39,544 bases of DNA from Candidatus Micrarchaeota archaeon (GTDB lineage: Archaea; Iainarchaeota; Iainarchaeia; Iainarchaeales; JAGVWC01). Both the position numbers and the translations under genes were made by a program. Under the pieces are notes generated by a model. It worked only from the letters and a program-made list of their open reading frames with translations, was not told the DNA's origin and ran no database searches. This document shows positions 1,823 to 26,002 of the stretch, piece after piece. The stretch's first letter is position 1. Each line of letters opens with the position of its first letter. The DNA is taken from NCBI GenBank assembly GCA_043803815.1, contig JAZDJR010000005.1, positions 1 through 39,544 on the forward strand, read 5' to 3'.

Positions 1823-4270
1823 ATGAGTTCCAAAATGGGCATAAGCGGCCGCGAAACCGCATTGGTGCTGCGGTTGGACCGCGTTGCCAAAGACGATGTC
1901 GCATTGGTGGGCGGCAAAAACGCGGCTTTGGGCGAATTGCTGCAAAACCTGGTTTCAAAAGGGATTCGGGTTCCGAACGGTTTTTGCGTGACTGCCAGCG
2001 GTTACCGGCTTTTTTTAAAGGAAAACGGACTGGCGGAAAAAATCAGCCGGGAATTGCGGGGGCTGGACAAAAAAAACGTGGAACATCTGGCCAAGGCGGG
2101 AAAGACAATCCGCCATTTGATGCTGGAAACGCCTTTGCCGGAAAAGCTTGAAAACGCGGTTATTTCCGCGTACCGCGATTTTGAAATTGCGTATGGAAAA
2201 AATTTTGACGCGGCTGTTCGTTCAAGCGCCACAGCCGAAGACCTGCCCACCGCCAGTTTTGCGGGCCAGCAGGAAACCTATTTGAACATTACCGGAACCG
2301 CGGCGTTATTGATAGCGGTGAAAAAATGCTTTGCGTCTTTGTTTACCGACCGCGCGATTTCGTACCGCGAAGACAAGGGATTTGACCATTTCAAAGTCGC
2401 ATTGTCGGTCGGAATCCAAAAAATGGTGCGCAGCGACATCGGCTCCGCAGGCGTCATGTTTTCACTCGATACGGAAACGGGATTTAAGGATGTCATTTTG
2501 ATTAACGCGGCGTGGGGCCTTGGCGAAAGCGTGGTGCAGGGAAGCGTGAATCCCGACCAATTTATTTTGTTCAAGCCGTCTCTTCGCATGGGCAAAAAAA
2601 GCGTGCTGTCCAAAAAACTCGGGGACAAACTGCACCAGGTGGTATACTCTCATAAAAATCCAACCAAAACGATTGATGTTCCGGACAAAAAACGAAAACA
2701 GTTCTGCATTTCCGATGACGACGCGATTACTTTGGCCAAGTGGGGATTGCTTGTGGAAGACCATTTTTCAAAAAAAGCGGGGAAATGGGTTCCGATGGAC
2801 ATGGAGTGGGCCAAAGACGGAAACACGGGGGAACTGTTTATGGTGCAGGCGCGCCCCGAAACCGTCCAAAGCCAAAAAAATCTCAACGAAATGCAGACGT
2901 ATTTTTTGAAAACGAAAAAAGAAAGTGCGGTTCTGGTTTCCGGAGAAAGCGTCGGGGAAAAAATAGGCAGCGGAAAAGCGCACGTGATTTTAAGCGTGCA
3001 TGAAATCGGGGAATTTAAGGCCGGCGAGATTTTGGTGACCGACTCGACCGACCCGGATTGGGAACCGATTATGAAAATCGCGAGCGGAATAGTCACGAAT
3101 AGCGGGGGCCGGACCTCTCATGCCGCAATTGTTTCGCGCGAACTGGGAATTCCCTGCATTGTCGGAACTCGGGTCGGAACCGACAAAATCAAAACCGGCC
3201 AAAAAATAACCGTGGATTGTTCGCAAGGCGAAACCGGAAAAGTGCTGGAAGGATTAATCGCATTCGGCGTCAAAAAAACACGGCTGGATTCGGTTCCAAA
3301 AACGCGGACCCAAATCATGGTTAATCTGGGAAACCCCGAACAGGCGTTTGAAACCGGCCGTTTGCCGACCGACGGCGTGGGCCTTTGCCGCGAAGAATTT
3401 ATCATTGCCGGCCAAATAGGGATTCATCCCTTGGCCTTGATTCATTTTGACAAAGTAAAGGAACCCGCGGTCAGAAAAAAAATCGAGGATGCTTGCGCGG
3501 GTTATCCCGACAAAAAGCTTTTTTTCGTCGAAAAGCTGGCCAGCGGAATCGCCTTGATTGCGGCGGCGTTTTATCCCAAGCCCGTCATTTTGCGGTTTTC
3601 GGATTTCAAGTCCAACGAGTATGCGCAATTGCTTGGCGGAACCGTTTTTGAACCCAAGGAAGAAAACCCGATGATTGGCTGGCGCGGGGCTTCCCGCTAT
3701 TATTCGCCGGAATTCAAGGAAGCGTTCGGCTTGGAATGCGAGGCGGTTAAGCGCGTGCGCGATGAAATGGGGCTGACCAATCTCAAAGTAATGGTGCCTT
3801 TTTGCAGGACGGTTGCGGAAGGAAAACGGGTAATCGAGGAAATGAAAAAAAACGGCTTGCGGCAGGGGGAACGCGGCCTGGAAGTTTTTGTCATGTGCGA
3901 AATCCCGTCCAACGTGATTTTGGCGCATGATTTTGCCAGAGTGTTCGACGGGTTTTCAATCGGCTCGAACGATTTGACGCAATTGACTTTGGGCCTTGAC
4001 CGCGATTCGGCTTTGGTTGCAGAACTGTATGATGAGCGCAATCCCGCGGTGCTTTCCCTGATAAAAGACGCGGTTTTGCGCGTCAAGCGCCAGCGCAAAA
4101 AAATCGGCATCTGCGGGCAGGCGCCAAGCGATTATCCCGAGTTCGTCGAGTTTTTGGTTTCGATCGGAATCGACTCGATTTCGCTGAATCCCGACGCGTT
4201 AATCAAGACCAAGCTTTTGGTTGCCAAAATCGAGCACAAACTGGCCGGTCTGGCTAAAAAGGCGGAGTAA
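1823..4270 (+). CDS. ppsA: Phosphoenolpyruvate synthase (pyruvate, water dikinase)
   Basis: VGGKNAALGE, VRSSATAEDLPTASFAGQQET, phospho-His motif GGRTSHAAIVSRELG, FSIGSNDLTQL and GICGQAPSD. Confidence 0.97.
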   Translation: MSSKMGISGRETALVLRLDRVAKDDVALVGGKNAALGELLQNLVSKGIRVPNGFCVTASGYRLFLKENGLAEKISRELRGLDKKNVEHLAKAGKTIRHLMLETPLPEKLENAVISAYRDFEIAYGKNFDAAVRSSATAEDLPTASFAGQQETYLNITGTAALLIAVKKCFASLFTDRAISYREDKGFDHFKVALSVGIQKMVRSDIGSAGVMFSLDTETGFKDVILINAAWGLGESVVQGSVNPDQFILFKPSLRMGKKSVLSKKLGDKLHQVVYSHKNPTKTIDVPDKKRKQFCISDDDAITLAKWGLLVEDHFSKKAGKWVPMDMEWAKDGNTGELFMVQARPETVQSQKNLNEMQTYFLKTKKESAVLVSGESVGEKIGSGKAHVILSVHEIGEFKAGEILVTDSTDPDWEPIMKIASGIVTNSGGRTSHAAIVSRELGIPCIVGTRVGTDKIKTGQKITVDCSQGETGKVLEGLIAFGVKKTRLDSVPKTRTQIMVNLGNPEQAFETGRLPTDGVGLCREEFIIAGQIGIHPLALIHFDKVKEPAVRKKIEDACAGYPDKKLFFVEKLASGIALIAAAFYPKPVILRFSDFKSNEYAQLLGGTVFEPKEENPMIGWRGASRYYSPEFKEAFGLECEAVKRVRDEMGLTNLKVMVPFCRTVAEGKRVIEEMKKNGLRQGERGLEVFVMCEIPSNVILAHDFARVFDGFSIGSNDLTQLTLGLDRDSALVAELYDERNPAVLSLIKDAVLRVKRQRKKIGICGQAPSDYPEFVEFLVSIGIDSISLNPDALIKTKLLVAKIEHKLAGLAKKAE

Positions 4271-5729: not shown

Positions 5730-7136
5730 ATGGAAAAAAATTGGGCCGGCTTTCAAAAGAAAATGTCTGAAATGGCAACCGCTTTTTTGGGCAAAGAGAA
5801 CTGGGCGTTAATATACAATTACGATTCGGACGGAATTTCGAGCGGCGCGATTATCGCGTTAACCATACAACGGCGCGGCACAAAATTCCAAACCCTGGCG
5901 CTAAAGCAACTGTATCCCGAACACGCGGAACAAATAAAATCCATGGGAAAAAACTTTTTTTTTGCGGATTTCGGAAGCGGGCAGCTCGATTTTTTGAAAA
6001 AAGAATTCGGCGAAAACTTTTTTGTGCTCGACCATCACCAGCCGCTTCCGATAGAGCATGCCTGGCACTGCAATCCGTTTTTGTTCGGGTTTGACGGAGG
6101 AAGCGAAATTTCGGCCAGCGGAATGGCCTACTTTTTTTCAACCGCGGTTGATTTAAAAAACAGGGATTTGGCGTCGTTGGCCATTGTCGGCGCGGTCGGG
6201 GACATGCAGGACGAGACCGGAAGATTAATCGGATTAAATTCAAAAATCGTTTCGGATGGGGAAGCCGCGGGAGTATTGAAAAAAAAAGAGGGCCTGCGCT
6301 TGTACGGCCGAATCTCGCGGCCGCTCGTGCAGTTTCTGATGTTTTGCACCGCGCCCTACCTGCCGGAACTCACGGGAAACGAATTAAACTGCATCCGTTT
6401 TTTGGAATCTTTGGGAATTGAATTAAAGCAAAACGAGCGCTGGATTTCGTTTGAAATGCTTTCGCTGTCGGGCCAAAAAAAACTGGTTTCCGCACTTGTG
6501 ATGCACCTTTCGCGGCACAATGTTTCCGAATACAAAATTCAGGAATTGTTCGGAGAATTGTATTCGCGCATACAAGAAGAGCCGTTTTCCCCGCTTTCGG
6601 ACGCCAAAGAAATGGGAACCTTGCTCAATGCCTGCGGCCGCTGGGGAAAAGCCGACGTGGGACTCGCGGTTTGCATGGGCGACCGTGAAGAAGCGTTAAG
6701 CACGGCCATGTCGCTTTTGGTCGAACACAGGCGAAAGTTGCGCGCGGGAATCCAATGGGTAACGGAACACGGAACGCAGTCCCGCGAAACATTTTATTTT
6801 TTTGACGCGGAAAAAAATATCGATGATTCGATTGTCGGAATTGTCGCGGGAATGCTGTACGGCGGAGGAACAATCGGTTTTGACAAGCCGATTATTGCGC
6901 TTAGCCGTTACCCGAGCGGCGAAATTAAGGTTTCCGGAAGAGCCACCCGCGATTTGGTGCAGCGGGGATTAAACCTTGGAAAAGCGTTTCACGAATTGTG
7001 CGCGGAAATGGGGGAAGGAAACGAAGGCGGCGGCCACAAAATCGCGGCAGGGGCCAAAGTGCCGGAAAAAAATCGGGAATTGTTTTTGGAGCTGCTTGAT
7101 GAAAAAATCAAGGAACAATTAGCGAAAGTTTACTGA
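5730..7136 (+). CDS. Archaeal RecJ-like DHH/DHHA1 phosphoesterase (GAN/Cdc45-like)
   Basis: YDSDG, ADFGSG, LDHH, GAVGDMQ, LLNACGR and GGGHKIAAGA motifs. Confidence 0.9.
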   Translation: MEKNWAGFQKKMSEMATAFLGKENWALIYNYDSDGISSGAIIALTIQRRGTKFQTLALKQLYPEHAEQIKSMGKNFFFADFGSGQLDFLKKEFGENFFVLDHHQPLPIEHAWHCNPFLFGFDGGSEISASGMAYFFSTAVDLKNRDLASLAIVGAVGDMQDETGRLIGLNSKIVSDGEAAGVLKKKEGLRLYGRISRPLVQFLMFCTAPYLPELTGNELNCIRFLESLGIELKQNERWISFEMLSLSGQKKLVSALVMHLSRHNVSEYKIQELFGELYSRIQEEPFSPLSDAKEMGTLLNACGRWGKADVGLAVCMGDREEALSTAMSLLVEHRRKLRAGIQWVTEHGTQSRETFYFFDAEKNIDDSIVGIVAGMLYGGGTIGFDKPIIALSRYPSGEIKVSGRATRDLVQRGLNLGKAFHELCAEMGEGNEGGGHKIAAGAKVPEKNRELFLELLDEKIKEQLAKVY

Positions 7137-9741: not shown

Positions 9742-12700
9742 ATGCAAAAAAGAGTCATTCCAGTTTTTTTGGTTTTAATCGGAGTCCTTTTTTTGGGTTC
9801 TTTGGTTTACGCATTCCCGTCCTATTTGCAGGTGCAGGGAAAACTGACAAACAGCTCGGGAGCATTGCTCAACGGAACATATGATATGAACTTTCGGATT
9901 TACGATTCCGGTTCGGGCGGGAATCCGCTTTACCTTGAATCCCACGCCGGAGCGAATGCGGTTGACGTGAACAAAGGTGTTTTCAATGTTCTTTTGGGTT
10001 CCATAACAACCCTTGATTTGAATTTCATGAGCGATTACTGGCTCAGCATCCAGATTGGCTCTGATTCTGAAATGTCCCCGCGGCAGAGATTGAGCGCAGT
10101 CGGCTATGCATTTGTCAGCAAAAAATCCCTTGGGGTTGAATGCACAGACTGCCTTGACACGAACCAGATTGCGAACATTTATGTTTTGAAAAGCGGCGAT
10201 TCGATAAGCGGGATATTAACGATTGACGGGAACCTTTCCGTAGTAAACGGCGACGTGAATTTCGACCGGTTGCAGGCAAACAGTTTTTACGGCGGGAACT
10301 TTTACGGTTCGGGAAGCGGTCTCACGGGTGTTGCAAAGCAGGATACAAATTGTGAAACATACGGCTCCTGTTCCACGGTTCTTTACTGGGATGACGCCAA
10401 CGGAATTTTCACCAAGCAATTGGATGGAAATAATTGGTACTCCCGCAAGGCTGAAACTGAAACCATTTCCGGCTTGTGGGATTTCATCAATACGACCAAT
10501 TTCCAGGGAGGCTTTAACGGAACCGGCGCAACCATTGAAAACGGAAACCTGTATGTCCAAAGCCTTGTCCTGAAAGGAGACATCAATAGCGCCGTGGTAA
10601 GCACGATTGACGTGAACGGCGACTTTTATCCCTACCTTACCAACAATTATGATTTGGGTTCTCTTGAAAAAAAATGGCGCAGCATTTTCGGGGTAACCAT
10701 TTATGGCGATTTCTTTTCAGGCAATGGCGCGAACATTACAAGCTTGAACGCCAGCAACATTTCCTCCGGAACGCTCGCGGACACCTGGCTAAGCAGCAAT
10801 ATTCCAAAAAAAGACACCGCGGAAACAATCCTGGGCACTTGGATTTTTCCAACAACCGGAATCACGCTCGGTTCAACCACTTTGAGTGAAGCAATGGCCG
10901 GGCAAATACATGCTTCAGGCTCCGACAACCAGAACTTATGGCTGACCTTTAACGCGGATGCCGGTTCAACCGCCGCGAACCTTCCCAACGATTACCTGAC
11001 CATTACCGGTGGAACCAATATCGCCACGAGCATCAGCAATGACACCTTGACCATTAATTATAACGGCCCCTCAACAAGCGACACGAACTGGCAGACCTCG
11101 TTTAATTTACTGGATGCCAACCTTTCGCAATCCTATTACAAACAAGCAGACGCCAATGTAGTTTTGGTCAAAAAAACCGATTACAATTCGTTAGGCGACC
11201 AACGATACGGCATAAAAGGAACAACAAACTTAGCATCATGGATATGGGACGCAGACTTCAACTCCGTTTACCTAAGAAATTTCACAGACACCAACTGGCA
11301 AACATCCTGGACAACCTTTGACGCCAACATGACCAACCGATTCATCCGCACCGACGGTTCGAGCACGACAACCGCAAGCATACCGTTTGCGCAAGGATTG
11401 ATTTCAAATGGGATAATCAAGGCCACCGCCGACGGAACTATCTGGTCGGATGGAACTACAGGAGTTACTCCCACTTCAGGGGCAGGAATAAGATTGATGT
11501 GGATACCGAGCAAGGGGGCTTTTAGGGCGGGGAGAGTTACAGGGAGCAATTGGGATGATGCAAATATAGGAAGCTATAGTTTTGGAATGGGCTATAATAA
11601 TAAGGCTTCGGGGGAGTCTTCGGTGGCTATGGGAGAGGAAACAACAGCATCGGGAAATTTTTCAGAATCGTCAGGATATTTGTCAATAGCTTCGGGATAT
11701 GCATCAACTGCTTCTGGTGCGCAGTCAATTGCTTCTGGAGATTATGCAACCGCATCGGGCGCGGCTACAACCGCTTCTGGGACAAGCTCAACATCAATAG
11801 GGGATAGCTCAATCGCTTCTGGGTATGCTTCGACTGCTATTGGACGGACTATAACCGCTTCTGGAAAAGGTGCATTTTCCGCAGGATATAACTATGATTC
11901 TGCCGAGGGAAGCTTTGTTGCGGGGACCGGAACACCCAACATTGGATATGGGCAAGTTGCATTAGGCTATTCTTCTAATGGCGGAACATTAAAGGCTGAA
12001 GGAACTGGAAGCATTGCAATGGGAATGAATGTCAATGCCTTGACCAATCCTAATGTTTTAGTATTTGGCAGGGATTTTTCAACTGATATTCAGGACAGTT
12101 TTAATATTGGTTTCGGACAATTAGATTATCAATTCACTTCATCGCAGGCAGATTTCAAAGACAGCAACCTCACTACCACCAGCGATGTGAATGCTTCTCG
12201 TTTTTGTTTTCCAGACACAACCTGCATGACAACCGCAAGCGTTTCGGGAACGGATACGAATTGGCAGACTTCGTTCAATTTATTGGACGCGAATCTGGCT
12301 TTGTCGTATTACAAACAGGCAGATGCTAACGCGGTTTTGGTGAAAAAAAGCGATTTCAATTCGTTAGGCGACCAACGATACCAAAATGTTGATTCTACTT
12401 TTGAGGATTTTATGCCTGGAAGTGCAGCGGGAACCGGCGGAGCAGTAAGTGTTTGGTTTGGAATCATATCTCTAGTGATGGGTAATCAAGCGGGGGTATC
12501 AGTAACGCAACCAAACGGCGTGTTTTTAATCGGTTCAACCGGAAGCAGTGTTTCCGACAATATAGGAAAAAGCGCAAGAACTGGTTTGGCGTTGAATGCG
12601 ACTGCTCCGTTTGACATTACTTTTCGAGCAAAAGTAGACAATACTACATCCATGTTTTCAAGATTTGGAGTTGGTTCACTGGCTACTTCCGATTCAAATA

Positions 12701-13020
12701 ATGGAATGTTTTTTCGGTTTGACACGGATGACGGCGACCAAAACTGGTTTATTAATATTGGGGACACCAATAGCAACGAATTGCGGGATACCAACATAGC
12801 GAAAAACACGAGTTATCATTTATTCAAAATTTCGGTTTCATCAACAAAAATAGAGTTTTTCATTGACAATGTTAGCGTGGGTTCCACAACAAACACGGCT
12901 AATATTCTAACAGCACAAATGGGAATCGTAGCGGAAGGAATAGCAAGAAGCCCAACAACAGTGGCAAACACTTGGATAGATTATTGGAAAATAACGCCAA
13001 CAAACAGACCAACAACATAA
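9742..13020 (+). CDS. Large exported surface/adhesin-like protein (1092 aa)
   Basis: N-terminal signal peptide; S/T/G/N-rich; YadA-head-like 14-aa repeats; internal 43-aa duplication; beta-rich C-terminal domain. Confidence 0.85.
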   Translation: MQKRVIPVFLVLIGVLFLGSLVYAFPSYLQVQGKLTNSSGALLNGTYDMNFRIYDSGSGGNPLYLESHAGANAVDVNKGVFNVLLGSITTLDLNFMSDYWLSIQIGSDSEMSPRQRLSAVGYAFVSKKSLGVECTDCLDTNQIANIYVLKSGDSISGILTIDGNLSVVNGDVNFDRLQANSFYGGNFYGSGSGLTGVAKQDTNCETYGSCSTVLYWDDANGIFTKQLDGNNWYSRKAETETISGLWDFINTTNFQGGFNGTGATIENGNLYVQSLVLKGDINSAVVSTIDVNGDFYPYLTNNYDLGSLEKKWRSIFGVTIYGDFFSGNGANITSLNASNISSGTLADTWLSSNIPKKDTAETILGTWIFPTTGITLGSTTLSEAMAGQIHASGSDNQNLWLTFNADAGSTAANLPNDYLTITGGTNIATSISNDTLTINYNGPSTSDTNWQTSFNLLDANLSQSYYKQADANVVLVKKTDYNSLGDQRYGIKGTTNLASWIWDADFNSVYLRNFTDTNWQTSWTTFDANMTNRFIRTDGSSTTTASIPFAQGLISNGIIKATADGTIWSDGTTGVTPTSGAGIRLMWIPSKGAFRAGRVTGSNWDDANIGSYSFGMGYNNKASGESSVAMGEETTASGNFSESSGYLSIASGYASTASGAQSIASGDYATASGAATTASGTSSTSIGDSSIASGYASTAIGRTITASGKGAFSAGYNYDSAEGSFVAGTGTPNIGYGQVALGYSSNGGTLKAEGTGSIAMGMNVNALTNPNVLVFGRDFSTDIQDSFNIGFGQLDYQFTSSQADFKDSNLTTTSDVNASRFCFPDTTCMTTASVSGTDTNWQTSFNLLDANLALSYYKQADANAVLVKKSDFNSLGDQRYQNVDSTFEDFMPGSAAGTGGAVSVWFGIISLVMGNQAGVSVTQPNGVFLIGSTGSSVSDNIGKSARTGLALNATAPFDITFRAKVDNTTSMFSRFGVGSLATSDSNNGMFFRFDTDDGDQNWFINIGDTNSNELRDTNIAKNTSYHLFKISVSSTKIEFFIDNVSVGSTTNTANILTAQMGIVAEGIARSPTTVANTWIDYWKITPTNRPTT
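11080..11208 (+). repeat. Intragenic 129-bp repeat, copy 1 (DTNWQTSFNLLDANL...NSLGDQRY)
   Basis: Aligns without gaps to 12253-12381. Differences are mostly synonymous and the last 25 nt are identical. Confidence 0.95.
11566..11889 (+). repeat. YadA-head/Hep_Hag-like tandem peptide repeats
   Basis: About 14-aa period of the form ASGxxSxAxGxxxx (ASGESSVAMG, ASGYASTASG, ASGDYATASG, ASGTSSTSIG, ASGYASTAIG). Confidence 0.8.
12253..12381 (+). repeat. Intragenic 129-bp repeat, copy 2
   Basis: See copy 1. A third partial copy (DTNWQTSWTTFDANM) begins at about 11287. Confidence 0.95.
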
Positions 13021-13140
13021 ATCCGGCGTTTTCCAAGGCGGTTAATCCAAGGCCGCTTGCCCTTGGTAACTGGGGCAGCCGGCAGCACCTGCCCGAACAG
13101 GCGGAGCAATAATCAGCAATGACTGAGAGTGTATGATAGT

Positions 13141-14688
13141 ATGCAAAACAAAAAAGCGGTTGTTTGTTTTTTCCTGTTGGCTTTTTTGTTTCTGCTGAAT
13201 TTCTCTTTTGCTTTTGCTTCGGTTTCAACAAGCGAAAACTATTCCCTTCAAATCGGCGGGAATATGCCCGCGGGAATGGGCGCGGATTCTGAAAATTACG
13301 GGGATTTTTACTGGGTAAACGAGCAGACCGCGGGCGCGGCAGCAAGCGGCAATTACGGGGAAGGGCTCGGCTTTGCACATGCCGATGTGAATAATGAAGC
13401 CCCCTCAATTTCCATTACAAGCCCTGCGGATGGTTCCACAATAACCACGACAACCGTAACCCTGAATTATAGCGCTGCATCCGAGGTCGGAATCAAGAAT
13501 TATTGGGTAAAAGTGGATACAGGAAACTGGATTTACACTTCCGAAACAAGCTATTCTTTCACAAGCCAAAGCAACGGCGTGCACATGTACTATGCGAAAG
13601 CAACCGACTTGTTCGACCAGAACTCCAACATCGCCTATGTGCAGGTTACCGTGGATTATTTTCCACCACTTGTTGAAACCTGCGGAAACGGTTCGTGCGC
13701 CGGCGGTGAAAACTGCTCCAATTGCCCAAGCGACTGCGGTCCGTGCGGCGGCGGAGGCGATGGAGGCGGCGGCGGAGGAAGCGGGGGCGGCGGTGGCATA
13801 CGGCTAAAAGGCCTTGGGGAAGCCTGCACGAATAACAGCGAATGCGGCAGCCAAAAGTGCATTGAAAAAACCTGTTCGGAATGCACGAGTAGTGCGACTT
13901 GCGCTGCAAACGAGTTTTGTTCCGCAAATCACTTGTGCTTGGAAATCCCGCCCGCCTGCGGACAAATCGAAAACCACGTTTTTATTCCCTATGAATGCTG
14001 TTCCAATTCCGACTGCGCAGCGGATAAAACCTGCAATGCTGATTCGCATTCGTGCGTTGCATCCAAAGGACCAAGACTTGTGATAACCCACGTTCCGTCC
14101 GTGGTAGTCAGCGGCCAAAGCGTGACTTTTACGGTCACTGACGAGAACGGAAATATTGCGACCGATGTCACCTTGACCATTGGTTCTGAAAAAAACCTGC
14201 TTTCAATAGCCAAAATGGAAACGGTTTTAGCCGCGGGAACCGTGCAGATAAAAGCGGAAAAGAAAGGGTATGCTTCCGACGGACTAACCCTAAGTGTCAT
14301 TGAACAGCTTAGCCTGGTTGCTCCGCAGATTGCTTACAAGGGAACGGCTACCGAAATCCTTGTGCTGGATGAAAAAGGAAGGCCCGCGGTAAACAAGGAA
14401 GTCGTACTCACCATGCCGGATGGCACGCAGTATACCCTAAAAACCAACGAGAACGGAGTTGTGCTGCTTCAGACCGAACTGATAGGAAACATCAAAATCG
14501 AGGCCAAAAATACGGGGTATGTGGTCGCAACCAAAATGATCAGCATCGAAAATGCGCCGATAGCGGAAACGCAGAATTTTCCATTTTATATCCTGGCAGT
14601 TATTGCCGGAGGAACTGTTCTGTACATCCTGCTTACAATGCACAAAAAGCGCCGCAGAAAAAAACCGCGCTTGTATTACCGAAAATAA
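13141..14688 (+). CDS. Membrane-anchored surface protein with Ig-like and Cys-rich domains
   Basis: Signal peptide; APSISITSPADG Ig-like start; CGNGSCAGGENCSNCPSDC; poly-Gly linker; further Cys-rich repeats; C-terminal TM helix followed by HKKRRRKKPR. Confidence 0.85.
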   Translation: MQNKKAVVCFFLLAFLFLLNFSFAFASVSTSENYSLQIGGNMPAGMGADSENYGDFYWVNEQTAGAAASGNYGEGLGFAHADVNNEAPSISITSPADGSTITTTTVTLNYSAASEVGIKNYWVKVDTGNWIYTSETSYSFTSQSNGVHMYYAKATDLFDQNSNIAYVQVTVDYFPPLVETCGNGSCAGGENCSNCPSDCGPCGGGGDGGGGGGSGGGGGIRLKGLGEACTNNSECGSQKCIEKTCSECTSSATCAANEFCSANHLCLEIPPACGQIENHVFIPYECCSNSDCAADKTCNADSHSCVASKGPRLVITHVPSVVVSGQSVTFTVTDENGNIATDVTLTIGSEKNLLSIAKMETVLAAGTVQIKAEKKGYASDGLTLSVIEQLSLVAPQIAYKGTATEILVLDEKGRPAVNKEVVLTMPDGTQYTLKTNENGVVLLQTELIGNIKIEAKNTGYVVATKMISIENAPIAETQNFPFYILAVIAGGTVLYILLTMHKKRRRKKPRLYYRK

Positions 14689-14695
14689 GGAAATT

Positions 14696-16387
14696 TTAGG
14701 CATTTGGATTTTGCGAAGCGCCGGAACTGTTTTGTGCCTGAAAGTGCCGCTTGTTTTGGCTGCGCATCTCGGCATCCAGGCGGCTCAAATCGTAATCGTT
14801 CAAGTCTACGAACTGCAGCAAGGATGCAAGGCGTGGATGCACTTTTTGGATTTCGCGGTACATTTGCTGCGTCATGCGCCGATACGAAATGTGGCCCTGC
14901 TTTTGCGAGCGCAGTTCGATGAAGTGGAATGCTTCGCGCAGGTTCATTTTCATGTACCAGCGGATTTTGTAGGCAAACGGAACCGCGTACTGGGCTTCCA
15001 ATGGCATAGTGGCGCGGATTTTTCGGTTCAGCTGCGCGGCCTGTTCCATTGCAAAAGTAAAATCGTTTTCAAAGCCCGCTTCGGAAAGCTCTTTTGGAAT
15101 GTCAAAGCCGTTGTTAATTGTGATGAGCTGACGGCTCTGCGTAAGGACGCGGTGGCGCTGCAGGTCGCGGTACATGCCGTAATCGCCGAGCAAATCAAAC
15201 GTATATGCGGTATTTTCAAAAGCGCGCGAAGGCTTGTCGCGCCTTGTCCTGCGCTTTCCGAGCAGGGTATTAAGCAAGGCTTCTTTTTCGGTTTCGGAAA
15301 GTTTATGCGCGATTTTTTGTGCCTGTGAAAACGAAAGAGATGAAAATTCCATTATAAGTGGCGCCAAAATTTTTTCCTCGGCATCCACGTCAAAGTCCAC
15401 AAGCGTGACGGAAGCGGTTGTGTCCGGTTTTTGGCCTTGCACGAGCTTTTCAATAACCAGCCGATTTTCTTTGGAATTTTGGACGAGAAATTCGTCGGCC
15501 TTTGCCCTGCGCACAAACGGGCCGATGACGGTTCCGAGTTCCGCGTGCATGACCTTTGCAAGTTTGTTCATTTCCGAAAGCGGGTTGGAGTATAACTGCC
15601 GCAGGAGATATTCGAAAAAGCGGCCGTTTCCGAAAACGCCCATGTTGGTCAAGGTGGAAACCGGCAAAAAATACCGGAGCACGTCGCAGGTCTTGGCGCG
15701 AAGGCTGGATTTGTAAGCGGCTTGCGCGCGCTTTTGGATTTCAGGGTCGCGAATTTCGGGGAATTTTTGTTCCTGTTTGGCGGAAAAGTCCGTCATAAAG
15801 GAAAAATTTTCAATGGGAAAGCGCTCCTCGAAATACTTGGAAAGCGGTTCCACGAGACGCGAATATGTATCGAACAGGCTACGATTGACTTTTAGGTAAT
15901 CGTCCGCGAAACGGGACGCCATAATGCGGGGTTCTTTGTAAAACAAATAATCGCCGTCGATTTTTTGGTCGAAAAAAACATAGCGCGAGGATTTCTCCAG
16001 CGGCGAACCGCCTAATCTGCGGTCTTCGATCAGTTTGGTGGCCAAATTGCTGACGTTTTCAATGGCCAAGTGGCAGCCGCCGAGTTCGCCGACGGAATCG
16101 TCGCCAAAGCCGTCGAGCACGCGCTGATAAAACGCATCGGCTTTTTGTTCGGACACAGCCGAATCGGTTCTGGGCTGCAACGCCAAATCCTCCAGGTTTA
16201 AGTCCTTGTTTTGGATGAATTCGTCGAGTAATAGGCGGCGAAGTGACTTGGTGCTTCGCGAATAGCGGGAAAACAAGGCTCCTTTGACTGACTCGGGCAG
16301 GTTTTTGAGCACAAACACTGATTTGTCCACGTTTGAGCAATACAAAAGCAAGGTCTGTTTTTCGGAATCGGAAAAAATTTCAGGCAT
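14696..16387 (-). CDS. thyX: FAD-dependent thymidylate synthase, tandem two-domain type
   Basis: LFSRYSRS, FGDDSVGELG, PLEKSSRY, DVLRYFLP, YRDLQRHR and HFIELRS..QGH.SYR. About 563 aa, roughly twice a canonical ThyX. Confidence 0.9.
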   Translation of the reverse strand: MPEIFSDSEKQTLLLYCSNVDKSVFVLKNLPESVKGALFSRYSRSTKSLRRLLLDEFIQNKDLNLEDLALQPRTDSAVSEQKADAFYQRVLDGFGDDSVGELGGCHLAIENVSNLATKLIEDRRLGGSPLEKSSRYVFFDQKIDGDYLFYKEPRIMASRFADDYLKVNRSLFDTYSRLVEPLSKYFEERFPIENFSFMTDFSAKQEQKFPEIRDPEIQKRAQAAYKSSLRAKTCDVLRYFLPVSTLTNMGVFGNGRFFEYLLRQLYSNPLSEMNKLAKVMHAELGTVIGPFVRRAKADEFLVQNSKENRLVIEKLVQGQKPDTTASVTLVDFDVDAEEKILAPLIMEFSSLSFSQAQKIAHKLSETEKEALLNTLLGKRRTRRDKPSRAFENTAYTFDLLGDYGMYRDLQRHRVLTQSRQLITINNGFDIPKELSEAGFENDFTFAMEQAAQLNRKIRATMPLEAQYAVPFAYKIRWYMKMNLREAFHFIELRSQKQGHISYRRMTQQMYREIQKVHPRLASLLQFVDLNDYDLSRLDAEMRSQNKRHFQAQNSSGASQNPNA

Positions 16388-16488
16388 CAAAACAGACACA
16401 ACCCGCCAAAAAATCATTAAAAAACCAAGGTTACTGCTACATAATTTGGATGGTTTTTAACCTTGTTTTTCGTTCAAAATATGCGCCT

Positions 16489-21873: not shown

Positions 21874-24800
21874 TTAATGAACCAAAATACTCTTTTGGTT
21901 TGGAATTTGTTGTTGCTCTTTTAATGCGGCATGGGCGGCCGCTAACCGTGCAATCGGCACGCGGTAAGGCGAGCAGCTGACGTTGTTCAGGCCGATTTTG
22001 TGGCAGAATTCGACGCTTTCGGGGTCTCCGCCGTGCTCTCCGCAGATTCCGATGTTTATGTCGGGGTTGGTTTTGCGCGCGGCATCGACCGCCATTTTCA
22101 TTAATTGCCCGACGCCGTCCTGGTCGATGGAGACAAACGGGTCGGTTTCGAAAATCTTTTTGTTCAAGTACAAAGGAATAAATCGTCCCGAGTCGTCGCG
22201 CGAAAAGCCGAGCGTGGTTTGGGTCAAATCGTTGGTTCCAAAAGAAAAAAATTCGGAGTGCTTGGCGAGTTCGCCGGCCATTAATGCGCCGCGCGGAACT
22301 TCGATCATGGAGCCGATTTTGTAGGCGATTTTTCCTTTGGCTTTGGTTTGCACCGCGATTTTTTCAATCATTTCTTTTAAAATCAAAAATTCTTTTTCAA
22401 ATCCGACAAGCGGAATTTCGATTTCGGGAACAGGAACAACGCCTTTTTTGGAAACGTTTAAGGCGGCTTCAAAAATGGCTCGTATCTGCATTTCGTTGAT
22501 TTCGGGGTAAACGATTCCAAGCCGTACTCCGCGAAACCCGAGCATGGGGTTGAATTCGTGGAGCTCGTCGTTAATCCTGCGGAGCTTTTCCAACGGAACG
22601 TTCATTTCGCGGGAAATTTCCTGCAGTTCTTTTTCTTCCTTTGGCAAGAATTCGTGCAAAGGCGGGTCCAATAAGCGGATAATGACGGGCTGTTTGTTCA
22701 TTACGGTAAACAATTCCTCAAAATCTGCTCTTTGAAACGGCAATAATTTGTCCAATGCCAGTTTTCGGGCAACAACATTGTCCGCTAAAATCATTTCGCG
22801 GACCGCTTTGATGCGGCTGGCTTGGAAAAACATGTGTTCGGTGCGGCACAAGCCGATTCCTTGGGCGCCGAATTCGCGGGCTTTTTTGGCGTCTTTTGGG
22901 GTGTCGGCATTGGCGCGGATTTCGAGTTTGCGAAACGAATCCGCCCAGGACATCAAGGTTTCAAAATCGCCGGACAATGTAGGTTCGGATAATTCCAAAG
23001 AGCCCAAAAAAACTTCTCCCGTGGAGCCGTCAAGGGAAATAAAGTCGCCTTCCTTGATTTTGAGTTCTTTTTCTTTGGTTTTGACCGTAAAAAACCGTTC
23101 GTGTTCGTTGACCTGGATTTGGGAACACCCTGAAATGCAGCATTTTCCCATTCCGCGCGCTACGACGGCGGCGTGGGAATTGGAAACCAAAACGGGGGTG
23201 TAATTGTTTGTAAAAACAACGAAGTTTTTGTCCAGTTCTTCAGTAGAATCCACTTCAATGTTGTAAACAATGTTTTCCCCGGAGTCCTGAACAAAGTCAA
23301 CTCGGTTATTATGAACATCGGAATTCAAAATTTTTTTTAGTTCTTCTTGGCTATTTTTTGGATATATTGAAAGCCATTTTTCCAGCATTAATGAAGCGTT
23401 TACCATTCGTTTTCCTTTGATGGCTTGTTTTATTTTTCCTTCTAAGTCTTTTTCCAGTGAAATATCGTCGAATAATTGTTCAACCGCAAAAAGCTTTCGG
23501 CCATATTTTGTTTTGTGCATTTCGTGTTTAACCCGTTTGGTAAATTGCAGAACCCGTGCGGCTTCGGACAAAAGCTGGATATGGGCGATTGTCCGGTTTT
23601 TGGTTACTTGGGCAAGTAATCCCAAACGGAGACTGGCCAATACAACCCCTTTGGTTACTGGTCCTTTTCCAGTAAAAATATGGATGCGATTGTCGTGAAA
23701 AGAGCCATCTCCGTCAATTACGCCGGCCAAAAAGTTCCACAATCCGGTTTCATCCAACGAGAAAATGAATTGTTCAATATTTTCACGAATGTGCGCCAAA
23801 TAATACGCAGCTTCTTTTCTAGACGCGATAAAATCGGTTGCGCTTCCGCTAATTTGCCTTCCCCTTAAAACCGAATTGGTGCATTTGACCCTTTCAAGTG
23901 AAAAACCGTATCCGAATACCGTCTGAAAGTTTTGCTTAACCTGTGCGATAAAATCCTCTTTTTCAACGGTCTGCTTTTGCGTAAAAATAACTGTTCCCTT
24001 GGTTTTTCGCAATGCCAAATGACCATCCGTAAAAATAGCTCCGACCAAATAGGGCAATTCAGGGATAAACTTAGACCCAAAATCAATCGAGGGGGCCGTT
24101 GTTGGAATCTTGTCCACCACTGTCACAAATCCTTTTTTGGCTAAAATCTCGGTAATCGGTTTTTTCACCAGTTTTCGATTTTCAAAAAAATACATTTTGT
24201 GGTCGGGTGTCAGGGTCAAAAGATTTTGGCGGGTAATACCTCGGGAGGATATCCCTATTTGAATAGTCGGTTTTTTGTTTTTGCCAACAGCAACAATTTT
24301 TTTCCACTGCGATTTAAGGTTTTTAGAATCAAAAGACAAAATCGATAGCCGTTTTCCTTTTTCAATATTCTCAAAAACGCTTTGAATCGACATAAAACCT
24401 TGATTTGTCAAAATAATCGTTTCTCCAACAAAGCAAGTTAATCCGCCCGTGGAAGTCAGTATGCCTTGCGCGACGTTCATTCCTTCGATGTCTTCGGGCG
24501 ATGTTTCGGGGCGCACCAAAATGACTTTGGCGCCGGGTTCTTCTGAAATTTCGTGAACCGCCTGTCCGGCTGAAAAAACGGCTTTTCCAACCGCGGCTCC
24601 TGGGCTGGTCGCAAGTCCGCTTGCGATTTTAACCGCGGTTTTTTTGGCCGAGGAATTCAATTGCTTGTGTAATAGCTGATTGAGCTGGTCGGGATTTACC
24701 CGCAAAACCGCTTCTTCTTTGGTAATCAGTTTTTCATTGGCCATGTCAACCGCTATTTTTACGCCGGCTTGCGCGGTTCTTTTTCCTGAGCGTGTCTGCA

Positions 24801-25812
24801 ATAAAAACAATTTTTTTGTTTCAACCGTAAACTCAAAATCCTGCATGTCGCGGTAATGCTTTTCCAATAATAAGCGGATGCGGTTCAGTTCGGCGTACAG
24901 GGGCGCGTTTGTTTTTTGCAATTCGGCTATCGGCTGCGGCGTCCGGATGCCCGCGACCACGTCTTCGCCTTGCGCGTTGACCAGATATTCGCCGTAAAAC
25001 GTGTTTTCGCCAGTCGATGGGTTTCTGGTGAACGCAACTCCCGTGCCTGACGTTTCTCCTGTGTTTCCGAATACCATGGCTTGCACCGTGACTCCGGTTC
25101 CCGCGTCTCCGGGCAATTTGTTGATTCTGCGGTAGGATAAGGCGCGTTCGGAATTAAACGAATCAAACACCGCGTTAATTGCCAATCGCAGTTGTTCAAA
25201 TGCGTCCTGCGGAAACGGGTTTCCGGTTTTTTGCAAAACGATTTTTTGGTAATCCAAAACCAATTGCTTGAGGTCGTTGGCGGATAATTGGTAGTCAAAT
25301 TCGATTTTTTTTTCTTTTTTCAGTTCAAACAGTTTTTTTTCAAATTCCGAAATGGAAACATTAAGCACCACATCGGAAAACATCTGGATGAGCCTGCGGT
25401 AGCTGTCGTAGGCCATGCGGGGATTGCCGGTTTTTTTGGCGAGGCCTTCGACGGTCCGGTTGTTTAATCCCAGATTCAGAATGGTTTCCATCATGCCGGG
25501 CATGGAAACAAACGAGCCCGAGCGAACCGAAACCAACAGCGGATTGGTCGTGTCCCCAAATTTTTTTTGGGTTTGCATTTCCAGTTCCGCGGTTTTTTGT
25601 TTGATTTGGTCCATTAATCCGTTTGGCCATTGATTGTTATTGGCAAAAAAATAGCGGCAGGCGCCGGTTGCAATCGTAAATCCCTGCGGAACCGGCAGCC
25701 CCATCCGCGTCATTTCCGCGAGTTGGCAGCCCTTATTGCCCAATAAAAACAGGTTTTCCTCCTTTGTTTTTCCGGTTTGGTCTTTGAACGAAAATACTAG
25801 CTGTTCGGCCAT
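21874..25812 (-). CDS. ppdK: Pyruvate, phosphate dikinase, intein-containing
   Basis: LLGNKGCQLAEM, PLLVSVRSG..SMPGMM, NAQGEDVVAGIRTP, GIGLCRTEHMF, FSFGTNDLTQ and GICGEHGGDP. Start at ATG 25812 or GTG 25821. Confidence 0.96.
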   Translation of the reverse strand: MAEQLVFSFKDQTGKTKEENLFLLGNKGCQLAEMTRMGLPVPQGFTIATGACRYFFANNNQWPNGLMDQIKQKTAELEMQTQKKFGDTTNPLLVSVRSGSFVSMPGMMETILNLGLNNRTVEGLAKKTGNPRMAYDSYRRLIQMFSDVVLNVSISEFEKKLFELKKEKKIEFDYQLSANDLKQLVLDYQKIVLQKTGNPFPQDAFEQLRLAINAVFDSFNSERALSYRRINKLPGDAGTGVTVQAMVFGNTGETSGTGVAFTRNPSTGENTFYGEYLVNAQGEDVVAGIRTPQPIAELQKTNAPLYAELNRIRLLLEKHYRDMQDFEFTVETKKLFLLQTRSGKRTAQAGVKIAVDMANEKLITKEEAVLRVNPDQLNQLLHKQLNSSAKKTAVKIASGLATSPGAAVGKAVFSAGQAVHEISEEPGAKVILVRPETSPEDIEGMNVAQGILTSTGGLTCFVGETIILTNQGFMSIQSVFENIEKGKRLSILSFDSKNLKSQWKKIVAVGKNKKPTIQIGISSRGITRQNLLTLTPDHKMYFFENRKLVKKPITEILAKKGFVTVVDKIPTTAPSIDFGSKFIPELPYLVGAIFTDGHLALRKTKGTVIFTQKQTVEKEDFIAQVKQNFQTVFGYGFSLERVKCTNSVLRGRQISGSATDFIASRKEAAYYLAHIRENIEQFIFSLDETGLWNFLAGVIDGDGSFHDNRIHIFTGKGPVTKGVVLASLRLGLLAQVTKNRTIAHIQLLSEAARVLQFTKRVKHEMHKTKYGRKLFAVEQLFDDISLEKDLEGKIKQAIKGKRMVNASLMLEKWLSIYPKNSQEELKKILNSDVHNNRVDFVQDSGENIVYNIEVDSTEELDKNFVVFTNNYTPVLVSNSHAAVVARGMGKCCISGCSQIQVNEHERFFTVKTKEKELKIKEGDFISLDGSTGEVFLGSLELSEPTLSGDFETLMSWADSFRKLEIRANADTPKDAKKAREFGAQGIGLCRTEHMFFQASRIKAVREMILADNVVARKLALDKLLPFQRADFEELFTVMNKQPVIIRLLDPPLHEFLPKEEKELQEISREMNVPLEKLRRINDELHEFNPMLGFRGVRLGIVYPEINEMQIRAIFEAALNVSKKGVVPVPEIEIPLVGFEKEFLILKEMIEKIAVQTKAKGKIAYKIGSMIEVPRGALMAGELAKHSEFFSFGTNDLTQTTLGFSRDDSGRFIPLYLNKKIFETDPFVSIDQDGVGQLMKMAVDAARKTNPDINIGICGEHGGDPESVEFCHKIGLNNVSCSPYRVPIARLAAAHAALKEQQQIPNQKSILVH
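23179..24435 (-). mobile_element. Intein (419 aa) with LAGLIDADG homing endonuclease
   Basis: Junctions GGLT|CFVGET...VLVSN|SHAAVVAR. Block B TPDH, LAGLIDADG-like LVGAIFTDG and FLAGVIDGDG, and block F VYNIEV. Confidence 0.93.
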
Positions 25813-26002
25813 AGTTTTCACTTTCCCGAAAAAATTTTCTGAAAAAACCCGAAAATTCGCCTGAATTTTGTTTTTTTATCCAACTAACCGTTTAACAATT
25901 TGAATAAAAAACCATCGCGGAAAAAAACGGAAATTAAGGCAATTGCCGTTCCCAAGCGGTTTTGACCAACGGTTTTTATACAATTGTTGGTTTAGTGTTT
26001 GC

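Follow-up and report, generated by a model that had tools for sequence, protein, structure and literature searches.

The window analysed here is a stretch of 39,544 nucleotides (contig JAZDJR010000005.1 of assembly GCA_043803815.1, positions 1 to 39,544, from an archaeon of the GTDB order Iainarchaeales), which contains an open reading frame (ORF) for a chimeric fibre-like surface protein with 29 copies of the tripeptide Asp-x-Asn (D-x-N, where x is any residue). Its surroundings are archaeal housekeeping genes (Pus10, the mevalonate pathway, ThyX and SHMT); the closest named relatives of the SHMT come from metagenome-assembled genomes labelled Candidatus Iainarchaeum, Forterrea and Diapherotrites (68–70% identity), and the closest named relatives of the source organism are, judged by sequence similarity, Iainarchaeota (Diapherotrites). 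The D-x-N signature proved to be common in those members of the order that were sampled, where it marks part of their surface proteins. The interpretation that we favour, with confidence about evenly poised between its being right and wrong, is that D-x-N is a structural pair, cation-binding or hydrogen-bonding, in this secreted fibre adhesin and in other Iainarchaeota surface proteins. The fibre gene is laid out as follows:

9742..13020, forward strand: chimeric fibre-like surface protein; ORF of 1092 aa, stop included in the coordinates, 29 D-x-N.
9742..9819, forward strand: signal peptide or membrane anchor (aa 1–26, MQKRVIPVFLVLIGVLFLGSLVYA...), read from the sequence; classed as exported by a hydrophobicity rule, cleavage putative.
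9820..10131, forward strand: N-terminal beta domain (aa 27–130) common to the fibre proteins of relatives, from the Bdello_MAT_N match and the alignment.
10132..11058, forward strand: stalk region (aa 131–439), with eight D-x-N up to residue 292 and none in 293–439.
11059..11376, forward strand: lineage-specific fibre repeat module, copy 1 and a partial copy (aa 440–545), seven D-x-N, from the module alignment.
11419..12159, forward strand: YadA-head-like beta-roll module with a conserved entry segment (aa 560–806), one D-x-N, from Pfam YadA_head.
12232..12396, forward strand: fibre repeat module, copy 2 (aa 831–885), near-identical to aa 440–495, four D-x-N.
12397..13017, forward strand: C-terminal domain (aa 886–1092), likely the distal tip, four D-x-N, from an ESM Atlas feature search.

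From the composition of the fibre protein 6.1 copies of D-x-N are expected (standard deviation 2.3), and the observed 29 correspond to z = 10.0 (Poisson p = 2e-11). The tripeptides are DTN and DAN (seven each), DVN (four), DGN, DFN and DSN (two each), and DMN, DLN, DIN, DYN and DQN (one apiece); together they use 29 of the 72 Asp residues of the protein (~40%). S/T is present at +2 in five of the 29 sites and absent from 24, and with the second repeat copy and the partial third masked there remain 23 D-x-N against 5.2 expected (z = 8.4). In the 20 soluble-enzyme ORFs of the window D-x-N occurs 14 times against 15.9 expected. The first-pass annotation, made from the letters of the window, had counted about 29 motifs where 5–6 were expected, had described most of them as lacking S/T at +2 and the enrichment as surviving a discount for the internal repeat, and had not noticed the pattern in the cytoplasmic proteins; the figures above bear it out on each of these points. 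The motifs are unevenly spread: they cluster at residues 48–292, 447–529, 807–873 and 984–1018, with none at residues 293–446 and one in the module 546–806.

The same protein shows no excess of N-x-D (8 vs 6.1), N-x-S/T (19 vs 20.7), E-x-N (0 vs 1.7) or D-x-D (3 vs 4.7), and therefore the D-x-N excess is specific to residue order and spacing and is not an effect of composition. A cause at the level of local composition was ruled out by the N-x-D, DN, D-x-x-N, D-x-D and N-x-N controls, which stand at 0.7–1.0x in the exported and related proteins described below, and a cause at the DNA level was ruled out because the codon choice for Asp and Asn inside the motif equals that outside it. A chance or compositional artefact might have been suspected in a protein so rich in Asp (6.6%) and Asn (8.5%), but it is refuted by the shuffles of the ORF, 0 of 2000 of which reached 29 copies, and by the unenriched N-x-D and other spacings; as the signal is also replicated in hundreds of proteins, we consider this explanation practically negligible.

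The identity of the fibre was approached through its modules. Pfam YadA_head (PF05658) matches approximately residues 607–814 in five stretches (38.7 bits, cut-off 25), which confirms the YadA-head repeats, and PDB sequence matches of this module include BpaC (7o23), CbpF (9u93) and an entry titled Invasin (1p9h). A search of 5.8 billion proteins with the fibre gave 197 matches, of which the best 120 were examined; most of the 119 non-self matches among these are "tail fiber domain-containing" proteins of the Bacteroidota type, with similarity to the YadA-head module only, and single YadA-head modules of database proteins are up to 67% identical to the fibre. The matches in relatives span query residues 2–475. 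The N-terminal beta domain ends in D-L-N, which is kept in nine of 12 aligned homologues, and residues 16–90 match NCBIfam Bdello_MAT_N (NF053851) with 26.6 bits (E = 4.5e-6), below the cut-off of 60; this may be read as a resemblance to the MAT N-terminal domain, a lead only and not family membership. For the C-terminal ~208 residues, the nearest clusters in the ESM Atlas feature search are ~92–96% viral (Uroviricota), one of them with SO2946-like_C in 37% of its members, and Pfam gp37_trimer matches residues 980–1036 weakly, below its cut-off (E = 0.0063); a phage-like tip is thus a possible lead. A Pfam scan at E<=1 listed only YadA_head and the weak gp37_trimer, and detected neither a YadA membrane anchor nor the Peptidase_S74 chaperone domain, while NCBIfam YadA_autotrans reaches 14.7 bits against a cut-off of 750. 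The archaeal host has no outer membrane. YadA-head repeats without a YadA anchor or S74 chaperone, in company with such mixed modules, point to a chimeric fibre, most likely with an adhesive role. As a fibre the protein is a further example of the already known chimeric fibre adhesins.

To place the signature in its proteome we called 1094 ORFs in the genome (G000; 1.08 Mb, 36 contigs, 85.6% complete) and classed them by a crude hydrophobicity rule, with the known error that a Hef helicase was put into the exported class. This protein, a Hef-like helicase/ERCC4 nuclease (C25:8980-12984, 1333 aa), carries an intein, with Intein_splicing and LAGLIDADG_3 matches. The classes compare as follows:

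Exported, 245 proteins: D-x-N 458 against 286.9 expected, ratio 1.60.
Cytoplasmic, 601 proteins: 280 against 308.5, ratio 0.91.
Ambiguous, 147 proteins: 80 against 79.1, ratio 1.01.
Membrane, 101 proteins: 117 against 58.6, ratio 2.00, with 57 from one protein.

The expectation of the first-pass annotation that other exported, and not cytoplasmic, proteins would be enriched agrees with these counts. N-x-D lies at 0.92–1.04 in all four classes, and the canonical sequon N-x-S/T is unenriched in exported proteins (1.07x, vs 1.02x in cytoplasmic ones). In a scan of all residue pairs with gaps of 0–4, D-x-N was the most over-represented pair of the 245 exported proteins (z = 10.1), and it lay outside the top 12 pairs in the cytoplasmic proteins. 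The excess is concentrated in about 10–15 proteins, and without the six richest the exported class falls to 330 against 261.4 (1.26). Glu is very low in the D-x-N-rich proteins (1.7–2.3%), which include, besides the fibre itself:

C16:10133-13597: D-x-N 57 vs 8.1.
C24:23951-28300: polysaccharide deacetylase with Ig-like domains, 61 vs 11.2.
C36:17903-21334: LVIVD propeller with VWA, 25 vs 6.1.
C36:16935-17915: putative pilin-like N-terminus, 13 vs 2.1.
C17:9242-12775: 15 vs 3.9.
An S-layer-like protein: 12 vs 4.1.

No excess is seen in the exported proteins of greatest length (the top five, of 2555–3100 aa, with CarboxypepD_reg and macroglobulin-like Ig folds), which stand at 6/14.2, 6/10.8, 12/9.9, 9/10.1 and 7/9.0 (0.42–1.22x), and therefore the signature is not general to exported or beta-rich proteins. 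The genome encodes a family of giant proteins of 1177–3100 aa (C14 788-10090, 73132-81111, 83692-92832 and 94623-102977; C16:367-8034; C17:9242-12775) with a common N-terminus F-x-LEDGYY-x-x-LD-x-LD-x-x-GIPVY followed by CarboxypepD_reg and macroglobulin-like domains; most of them have no D-x-N excess, and in one a CAP domain closes the chain. A crude search pattern for class III (pilin-type) signal peptides lacked the specificity needed, its 26 matches being mostly ordinary membrane proteins, and no protein of this genome (85.6% complete) matched an archaellin family.

The signature recurs in the relatives of this archaeon. Fibre homologues from the same order are D-x-N rich (32/8.7, 52/10.8, 30/6.1 and 23/3.2, observed/expected), except for two (1/2.0 and 6/5.3), and a fibre of 2410 aa from the genome G006 contains 131 D-x-N against 27.4 expected, with 15 N-x-D. 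In the latter protein (L238, G006:C69:1-8000, frame 3) an 11-residue repeat, W-[FY]-x-K-Q-x-D-x-N-x-x, occurs in runs, and a module led by DTNW is present 13 times. Six relatives of the order were sampled, with 60–400 kb each, and their exported proteins gave:

G002: 166 against 46.5 (contigs chosen blind).
G013: 60 against 24.5 (contig held a match to the query).
G015: 102 against 61.5 (contigs held matches to the query).
G017: 145 against 98.8 (contig chosen blind).
G025: 19 against 14.8 (contig held a match to the query).
G031: 73 against 72.9 (contig held matches to the query).

Cytoplasmic proteins of the same samples lie at 0.73–1.13, and in five of the six samples, G025 being the exception, one or more large proteins of the exported or membrane class reach 3.7–7.4x. 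Outside the phylum we sampled four archaeal genomes, of which the Nanoarchaeia sample comprised only about 20 kb. Their exported D-x-N counts are 15/19.05 (Micrarchaeota-labelled), 31/25.3 (Undinarchaeota) and 101/90.5 (Euryarchaeota SM23-78), and of their 12 exported proteins of at least 600 aa none is enriched (e.g. 27 vs 28.9 in a protein of 3363 aa). Among the YadA-head homologues (the 119 from the best 120 of 197 matches) D-x-N stands at 624/496.8, with a median ratio of 1.07, and the exceptions P0015 (77/14.2) and P0045 (20/6.7) both have the archaeal N-terminal architecture.

The protein with the LVIVD propeller and VWA gave a parallel comparison. Its 37 VWA+LVIVD orthologues hold 752 D-x-N against 204.1 (3.68, each protein 2.2–5.4x), and the few with names are labelled Diapherotrites, Micrarchaeota or "archaeon", whereas 83 LVIVD proteins without VWA hold 297 against 379.3 (0.78), with one, P0320, labelled Diapherotrites, at 3.0x. 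In C36:17903-21334 itself (locus L016:969-4397, reverse strand) the VWA domain is seemingly split: a MIDAS-like DRSGSMS lies near residue 300, the Pfam VWA match covers residues 764–895 from profile position 34, and an LVIVD beta-propeller of ~400 residues lies in between. Among 1.84 billion representatives, 346 match an Ig-like domain of the C24 protein at E<=0.001; the best 150 of these 346 contain 5788 D-x-N against 1351.8 (4.28x), more than twofold in 149 of the 150. When the Ig-like copies are set aside, 147 of these proteins retain 100 residues or more, and in this remainder the excess persists (3495/904.5, 3.86x), next to N-x-D at 0.87, E-x-N at 0.59, D-x-Q at 0.66 and N-x-S/T at 1.22. 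Of ten proteins looked up, drawn from these and from related ones, one bears an organism label, "Candidatus Diapherotrites". The lineage specificity supposed in the first-pass annotation thus agrees with what was sampled: the pattern is rich in members of the order, and is not rich in the four outside archaea or in bacterial homologues of the same folds. We found no description of a D-x-N signature in the literature searched, which covered AglB and sequons, DPANN, S-layer glycosylation in Micrarchaeota and Iainarchaeota surface proteins, supplements excluded.

Within the families the motif is kept in fixed places. The 14 copies of the fibre module have the invariant columns D8, T9, N10, W11, T13, S14, D19, N21, D31, N33, D41 and N43, i.e. 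four invariant D-x-N spaced by 11, 12 and 10 residues, the first flanked by T9, W11, T13 and S14. In 227 copies of the Ig-like domain six motif columns have D/N frequencies of 0.73/0.72, 0.63/0.67, 0.82/0.78, 0.87/0.88, 0.65/0.74 and 0.89/0.87, and three further ones of 0.45–0.68. Across 28 VWA+LVIVD orthologues (42% mean identity, 20.6 D-x-N each on average) the pairwise shared fraction of D-x-N is 0.49, compared with 0.20 for N-x-S/T and with 0.22 expected from the conservation of D (0.53) and N (0.41); 14 columns hold D-x-N in at least half of the 28 orthologues, and these plus 5–6 by chance make up the total. The two residues also tend to be lost together: Ig-like columns 43/45 have D-x-N in 177 copies, D only in 8, N only in 0 and neither in 41, and columns 61/63 have 196, 1, 4 and 24, respectively, a coupling which is inflated by the kinship of the copies. 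Where D is kept and N replaced, the substitutes in the Ig-like copies are D (103), T (78) and S (60); where N is kept and D replaced, they are S (45), N (29) and T (20), and E only five times.

It could be argued that the motif has no function of its own and is inherited baggage of ancestral modules that happened to hold D-x-N and were then massively duplicated and shuffled. The excess does sit in lineage-restricted families (the Ig-like domain with its 346 matches in 1.84 billion representatives), and tandem duplication is massive, with 131 D-x-N in one fibre of 2410 aa. Yet D and N remain invariant or best-kept while the modules diverge to 30–50% identity, the excess of 3.86x persists outside the Ig-like domain in the same proteins, unrelated folds including VWA are involved, and the tendency of D and N to disappear together speaks for selection acting on them as a pair, which makes an origin as mere baggage quite improbable in our view.

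The immediate surroundings of the motif suggest where it lies in the fold. At 5770 sites of the 150 representative proteins the frequency of hydrophobic residues relative to Asn is 0.42 at -3, 0.49 at -1 (x), 0.54 at +1 and 0.43 at +3, against a background of 0.34, and because of this hydrophobic-D-hydrophobic-N-hydrophobic pattern we place the motif in beta strands of amphipathic character, where D and N share one face. Pro is depleted at the same sites, to 0.15x at x and 0.37x at +1, which is also expected of beta strands. Modelled with AlphaFold2 on an alignment of 31 rows, the Ig-like domain at residues 736–867 of the C24 protein reaches a mean predicted local distance difference test score (pLDDT) of 95.2, and its motifs lie within strands or at strand ends; a model from the single sequence (pLDDT 43.8) was discarded. 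Foldseek found no match of the Ig-like model in the PDB at E<=0.001, and VIA-align wide returned only generic Ig/FN3/CBM sandwiches, with a best Z of 9.7 and no family prominent; the fold therefore gives no functional lead.

The first-pass annotation had proposed that D-x-N is modified by an oligosaccharyltransferase of altered specificity, to be recognised by altered WWDxG/DK motifs in AglB. We found a single STT3/AglB in the 85.6% complete genome (C35:9612-11786), with a canonical WWDxG in the form of WWDEG at residue 517. AglB is present in 38 of 41 genomes of the order, including that of the window, and the motif was found in 22 of 30 AglB loci of relatives, always with WWD (WWDEG in 15, WWDYG and WWDQG in two each, WWDVG, WWDKG and WWDNG in one each). 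The WWD of oligosaccharyltransferases holds the hydroxyl residue at +2, and Arg331 of Campylobacter lari PglB reads the acid at -2. The best PDB alignment of the archaeal enzyme covers the WWDYG region of the canonical eukaryotic STT3A, and no PglB chain matched it in the PDB search at E<=0.001. With one canonical AglB, E-x-N at 0.59x and S/T at +2 in only 22–24% of the sites, an altered specificity of this enzyme finds no support, and the altered WWDxG that was to be looked for is seen neither in this genome nor in the 22 relatives' loci with the motif, where WWD is kept. Two observations may be added on this enzyme and its contig. The fourth position of WWDxG is usually Tyr elsewhere, and it is Glu in 15 of the 22 motifs of the AglB loci L077-L106. 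The contig also encodes two multi-span proteins (C35:23269-24852, reverse strand, and C35:34242-35690, forward strand) with weak PMT_2-like matches, candidate GT-C-type transferases; a search of the genome for the PMT_2 family gave sub-threshold matches only, and Pfam names neither of the two.

In a wider sense D-x-N could be a lineage-specific modification motif, either for an N-glycosylation that needs Asp at -2 and no hydroxyl at +2 or for some other modification of Asn or Asp, carried out by AglB with an unrecognised specificity determinant or by another enzyme. Much of the distribution would suit it: the excess appears in exported and not in cytoplasmic proteins, is confined to the lineage and extends over unrelated folds (fibre repeats, Ig-like, VWA, the S-layer-like protein with 12 vs 4.1 and the putative pilin-like N-terminus with 13 vs 2.1), Pro is excluded at x and +1, and D and N are lost as a unit. 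N-x-S/T is unenriched in exported proteins (1.07x), so that any surface glycan coat is not reflected in the usual sequon, and one might further cite the mild surplus of S/T at +2, the Ig-like motifs that read D-x-N-x-S/T in consensus (five of nine conserved ones), and the two multi-span, weakly PMT_2-like proteins on the AglB contig. The details fit less well. AglB is single, keeps its WWD and aligns best in the PDB with canonical STT3A; Glu is not accepted at -2 (E-x-N 0.59x, D to E only five times); the frequent exchange of Asn for Asp would abolish N-glycosylation; 76–78% of the sites have no S/T at +2 (it is present in 22% of 454 sites); the five largest exported proteins remain at 0.42–1.22x; and the excess in the VWA+LVIVD orthologues sits in fixed columns and shows no site turnover. 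We regard a modification as unlikely, although by no means negligible, and the special case in which Iainarchaeota would use bare Asp-x-Asn to mark a defined set of surface proteins with a modification not described so far, for example an N-glycosylation that reads Asp at -2 in place of a hydroxyl at +2, as a rather slim prospect. If true, a bare D-x-N sequon would be categorically new, with up to 131 sites per protein kept by selection, and its enzyme would stand for a specificity class new among the protein-modifying enzymes of archaea.

Another candidate function is ligand binding, with the D/N arrays on flat beta surfaces serving as sites for sugars of the host envelope (directly or via Ca2+) or for mineral, and the proteins as multivalent lectin-like adhesins. 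The monosaccharide site of the GNA lectin, Gln-X-Asp-X-Asn-X-Val-X-Tyr, does include Asp and Asn at i,i+2 on a strand according to the portion of PMC3048538 consulted, so the pair is part of a lectin sequence; the proteins are adhesin-like (fibre, Ig arrays, VWA), and DPANN archaea are described as dependent on host-cell contact. However, the rest of the GNA motif is missing, Q at -4, V at +2 and Y at +4 being unenriched at the 5770 sites; the motifs are best conserved even in stalk repeats, where binding sites are unexpected; and D-x-N is fixed, whereas the binding sites of adhesins usually vary. A role as ligand site appears rather unlikely on this evidence.

The data show that the excess is specific and limited to certain proteins of one lineage, that the motif is conserved with D and N coupled, and which residues replace them. 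An element that keeps its position, does not tolerate Glu and accepts Ser, Thr, Asp and Asn, and that occurs in acidic proteins with little Glu and Lys, suits a cation-binding or hydrogen-bonding function better than an attachment site, and we therefore favour the structural pair, to which we give about even confidence. According to this interpretation the product of the gene would be a chimeric fibre adhesin secreted by a DPANN archaeon of the Iainarchaeota, composed of the signal peptide or anchor, the MAT-like beta domain, lineage-specific fibre repeats, the YadA-head-like beta-roll, a type of module that also occurs in Bacteroidota and phage tail-fibre proteins, and a C-terminal domain resembling a phage tip. 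Asp(i) and Asn(i+2) would form a conserved pair with both side chains on the same face of a beta strand, two short oxygen-bearing groups that may bind a cation (Ca2+ or Mg2+) or form a side-chain hydrogen-bond staple, and that would stabilise or stiffen Glu- and Lys-poor acidic extracellular modules. Along the fibre repeats one pair follows another at intervals of 10–12 residues, and the pairs may, by analogy with metal-binding phage fibres, line a trimer axis, where three D-x-N would supply six oxygen ligands per layer. An ion or hydrogen-bond function, a trimeric state and adhesion to a host cell are what we would infer from these regularities. The Ca2+-binding turns that the first-pass annotation had named as its alternative survive in part: a structural or ion-binding role fits the data better than glycosylation does, while the known Ca2+ loop pattern is not matched.

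Several points weigh against the structural pair. The EF-hand/DxDxDG loop is unmatched at the 5770 sites: D is depleted at +2 (0.5x), and +3 shows no enrichment of D or G. Many of the D-x-N sites in the propeller region of C36:17903 itself are unconserved, and some sites in the N-terminal domain of the fibre wander between homologues. S/T at +2 is mildly enriched (24% of 3493 sites vs 18% background), and five of the nine conserved Ig-like motifs read D-x-N-x-S/T in consensus, as a bacterial-type sequon would look. Finally, a structural need leaves it unexplained that the same folds elsewhere do without D-x-N: bacterial LVIVD proteins are at 0.78x, bacterial YadA-head fibres at a median of 1.07, and all 12 large exported proteins of the outside archaea lack the excess. 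This heavy use of the motif in sampled members of the phylum, set against no excess in the same folds elsewhere, is the main argument for modification and for ligand binding.

Directly downstream of the fibre gene lies a further exported protein:

13129..14688, forward strand: exported protein of 519 aa with a Big_7 Ig domain, a Cys-rich region, a C-terminal transmembrane anchor and a basic tail; D-x-N 3 vs 1.3.

It shares a C-terminal layout with C16:10133-13597 and C24:23951-28300, in which Big_7 is followed by a Gly/Ser or Pro/Thr linker and a Cys-rich segment, and the chain closes with one transmembrane helix and a Lys/Arg tail. Two enzymes of the window also have unusual lengths or repeats. 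A pyruvate-phosphate-dikinase/PEP-synthase-like ORF (21874-25821, reverse strand) of 1315 aa, with a PPDK_N match in three stretches and PEP-utilizers in two, exceeds the other ORF of this kind in the window (815 aa, 1823-4270) by several hundred residues and may hold an insertion, and the ThyX ORF (14696-16417, reverse strand, 573 aa) has two Thy1 stretches and looks tandem-duplicated or fused.

Iainarchaeota and other DPANN archaea, few of which have been cultured at all, are believed to live in attachment to other cells. Their surface proteins are likely the contact organs and are almost all unannotated, and a signature of two residues offers a simple handle for finding them in metagenomes: in the members of one phylum that were sampled it is carried by hundreds of proteins, and it is absent from the same folds in other sampled lineages. 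It also poses a biochemical question, whether D-x-N is an ion-binding or hydrogen-bonding staple, a ligand site or a new modification.

Comparison with known systems places both the fibre and its motif. The Bdellovibrio MAT fibres (NF053851), as described in the part of PMC10769870 consulted, are likewise secreted, built of mixed modules with a variable distal tip, and presumed to recognise another cell, and their N-terminal domain is weakly similar to that of the archaeal fibre. The protein studied here differs in being archaeal, in having a YadA-head-like module and lineage-specific D-x-N repeats in its middle, and in an N-terminal match far under the cut-off. With the heads of trimeric autotransporters (YadA, BpaC) and with the Bacteroidota tail-fibre proteins it has YadA_head repeats in common, but neither the YadA anchor nor the S74 domain was detected in it by the Pfam scan, and these bacterial relatives have no D-x-N excess. 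The PglB sequon D/E-X-N-X-S/T resembles the signature in its Asp at -2, in the avoidance of Pro on either side of Asn and in its limitation to exported proteins; in the archaeal motif, however, Glu is unused at -2, S/T occupies +2 in only about a quarter of the sites, and Asn is often replaced by Asp. As for the N-X-S/T of archaeal AglB, an AglB with WWDxG is present, but its sequon is unenriched in the exported proteins (1.07x).

Cadherins have DxNDN sites, and bacterial RTX adhesins contain Ca2+-dependent Ig-like extender domains, the BIg domains that are also discussed in PMC12518558. Both are, like the modules described here, Asp/Asn-rich acidic beta-sandwiches of giant surface proteins, and in both ions stiffen the chain. 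The D-x-N modules show no sequence or specific fold match to them in our searches, and the motif is a bare pair inside strands, not a loop.

The closest parallel to the fibre repeats would be the tip of the long tail fibre of phage T4, gp37, where, according to the section of PMC11705849 consulted, His-x-His pairs from three chains provide six ligands to an axial iron, and where an i,i+2 ligand pair is repeated along the fibre and conserved in homologues. An invariant i,i+2 pair recurring along a fibre repeat is found here as well, in the four D-x-N of the 14 module copies. The archaeal motif differs in offering Asp and Asn oxygens instead of His nitrogens, in its spacing of 10–12 residues, and in its presence in non-fibre domains, Ig-like and VWA. 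We offer the comparison with gp37 as an analogy, not a result, and we rate the D-x-N signature as a new form of the known repeated ligand-pair motifs.

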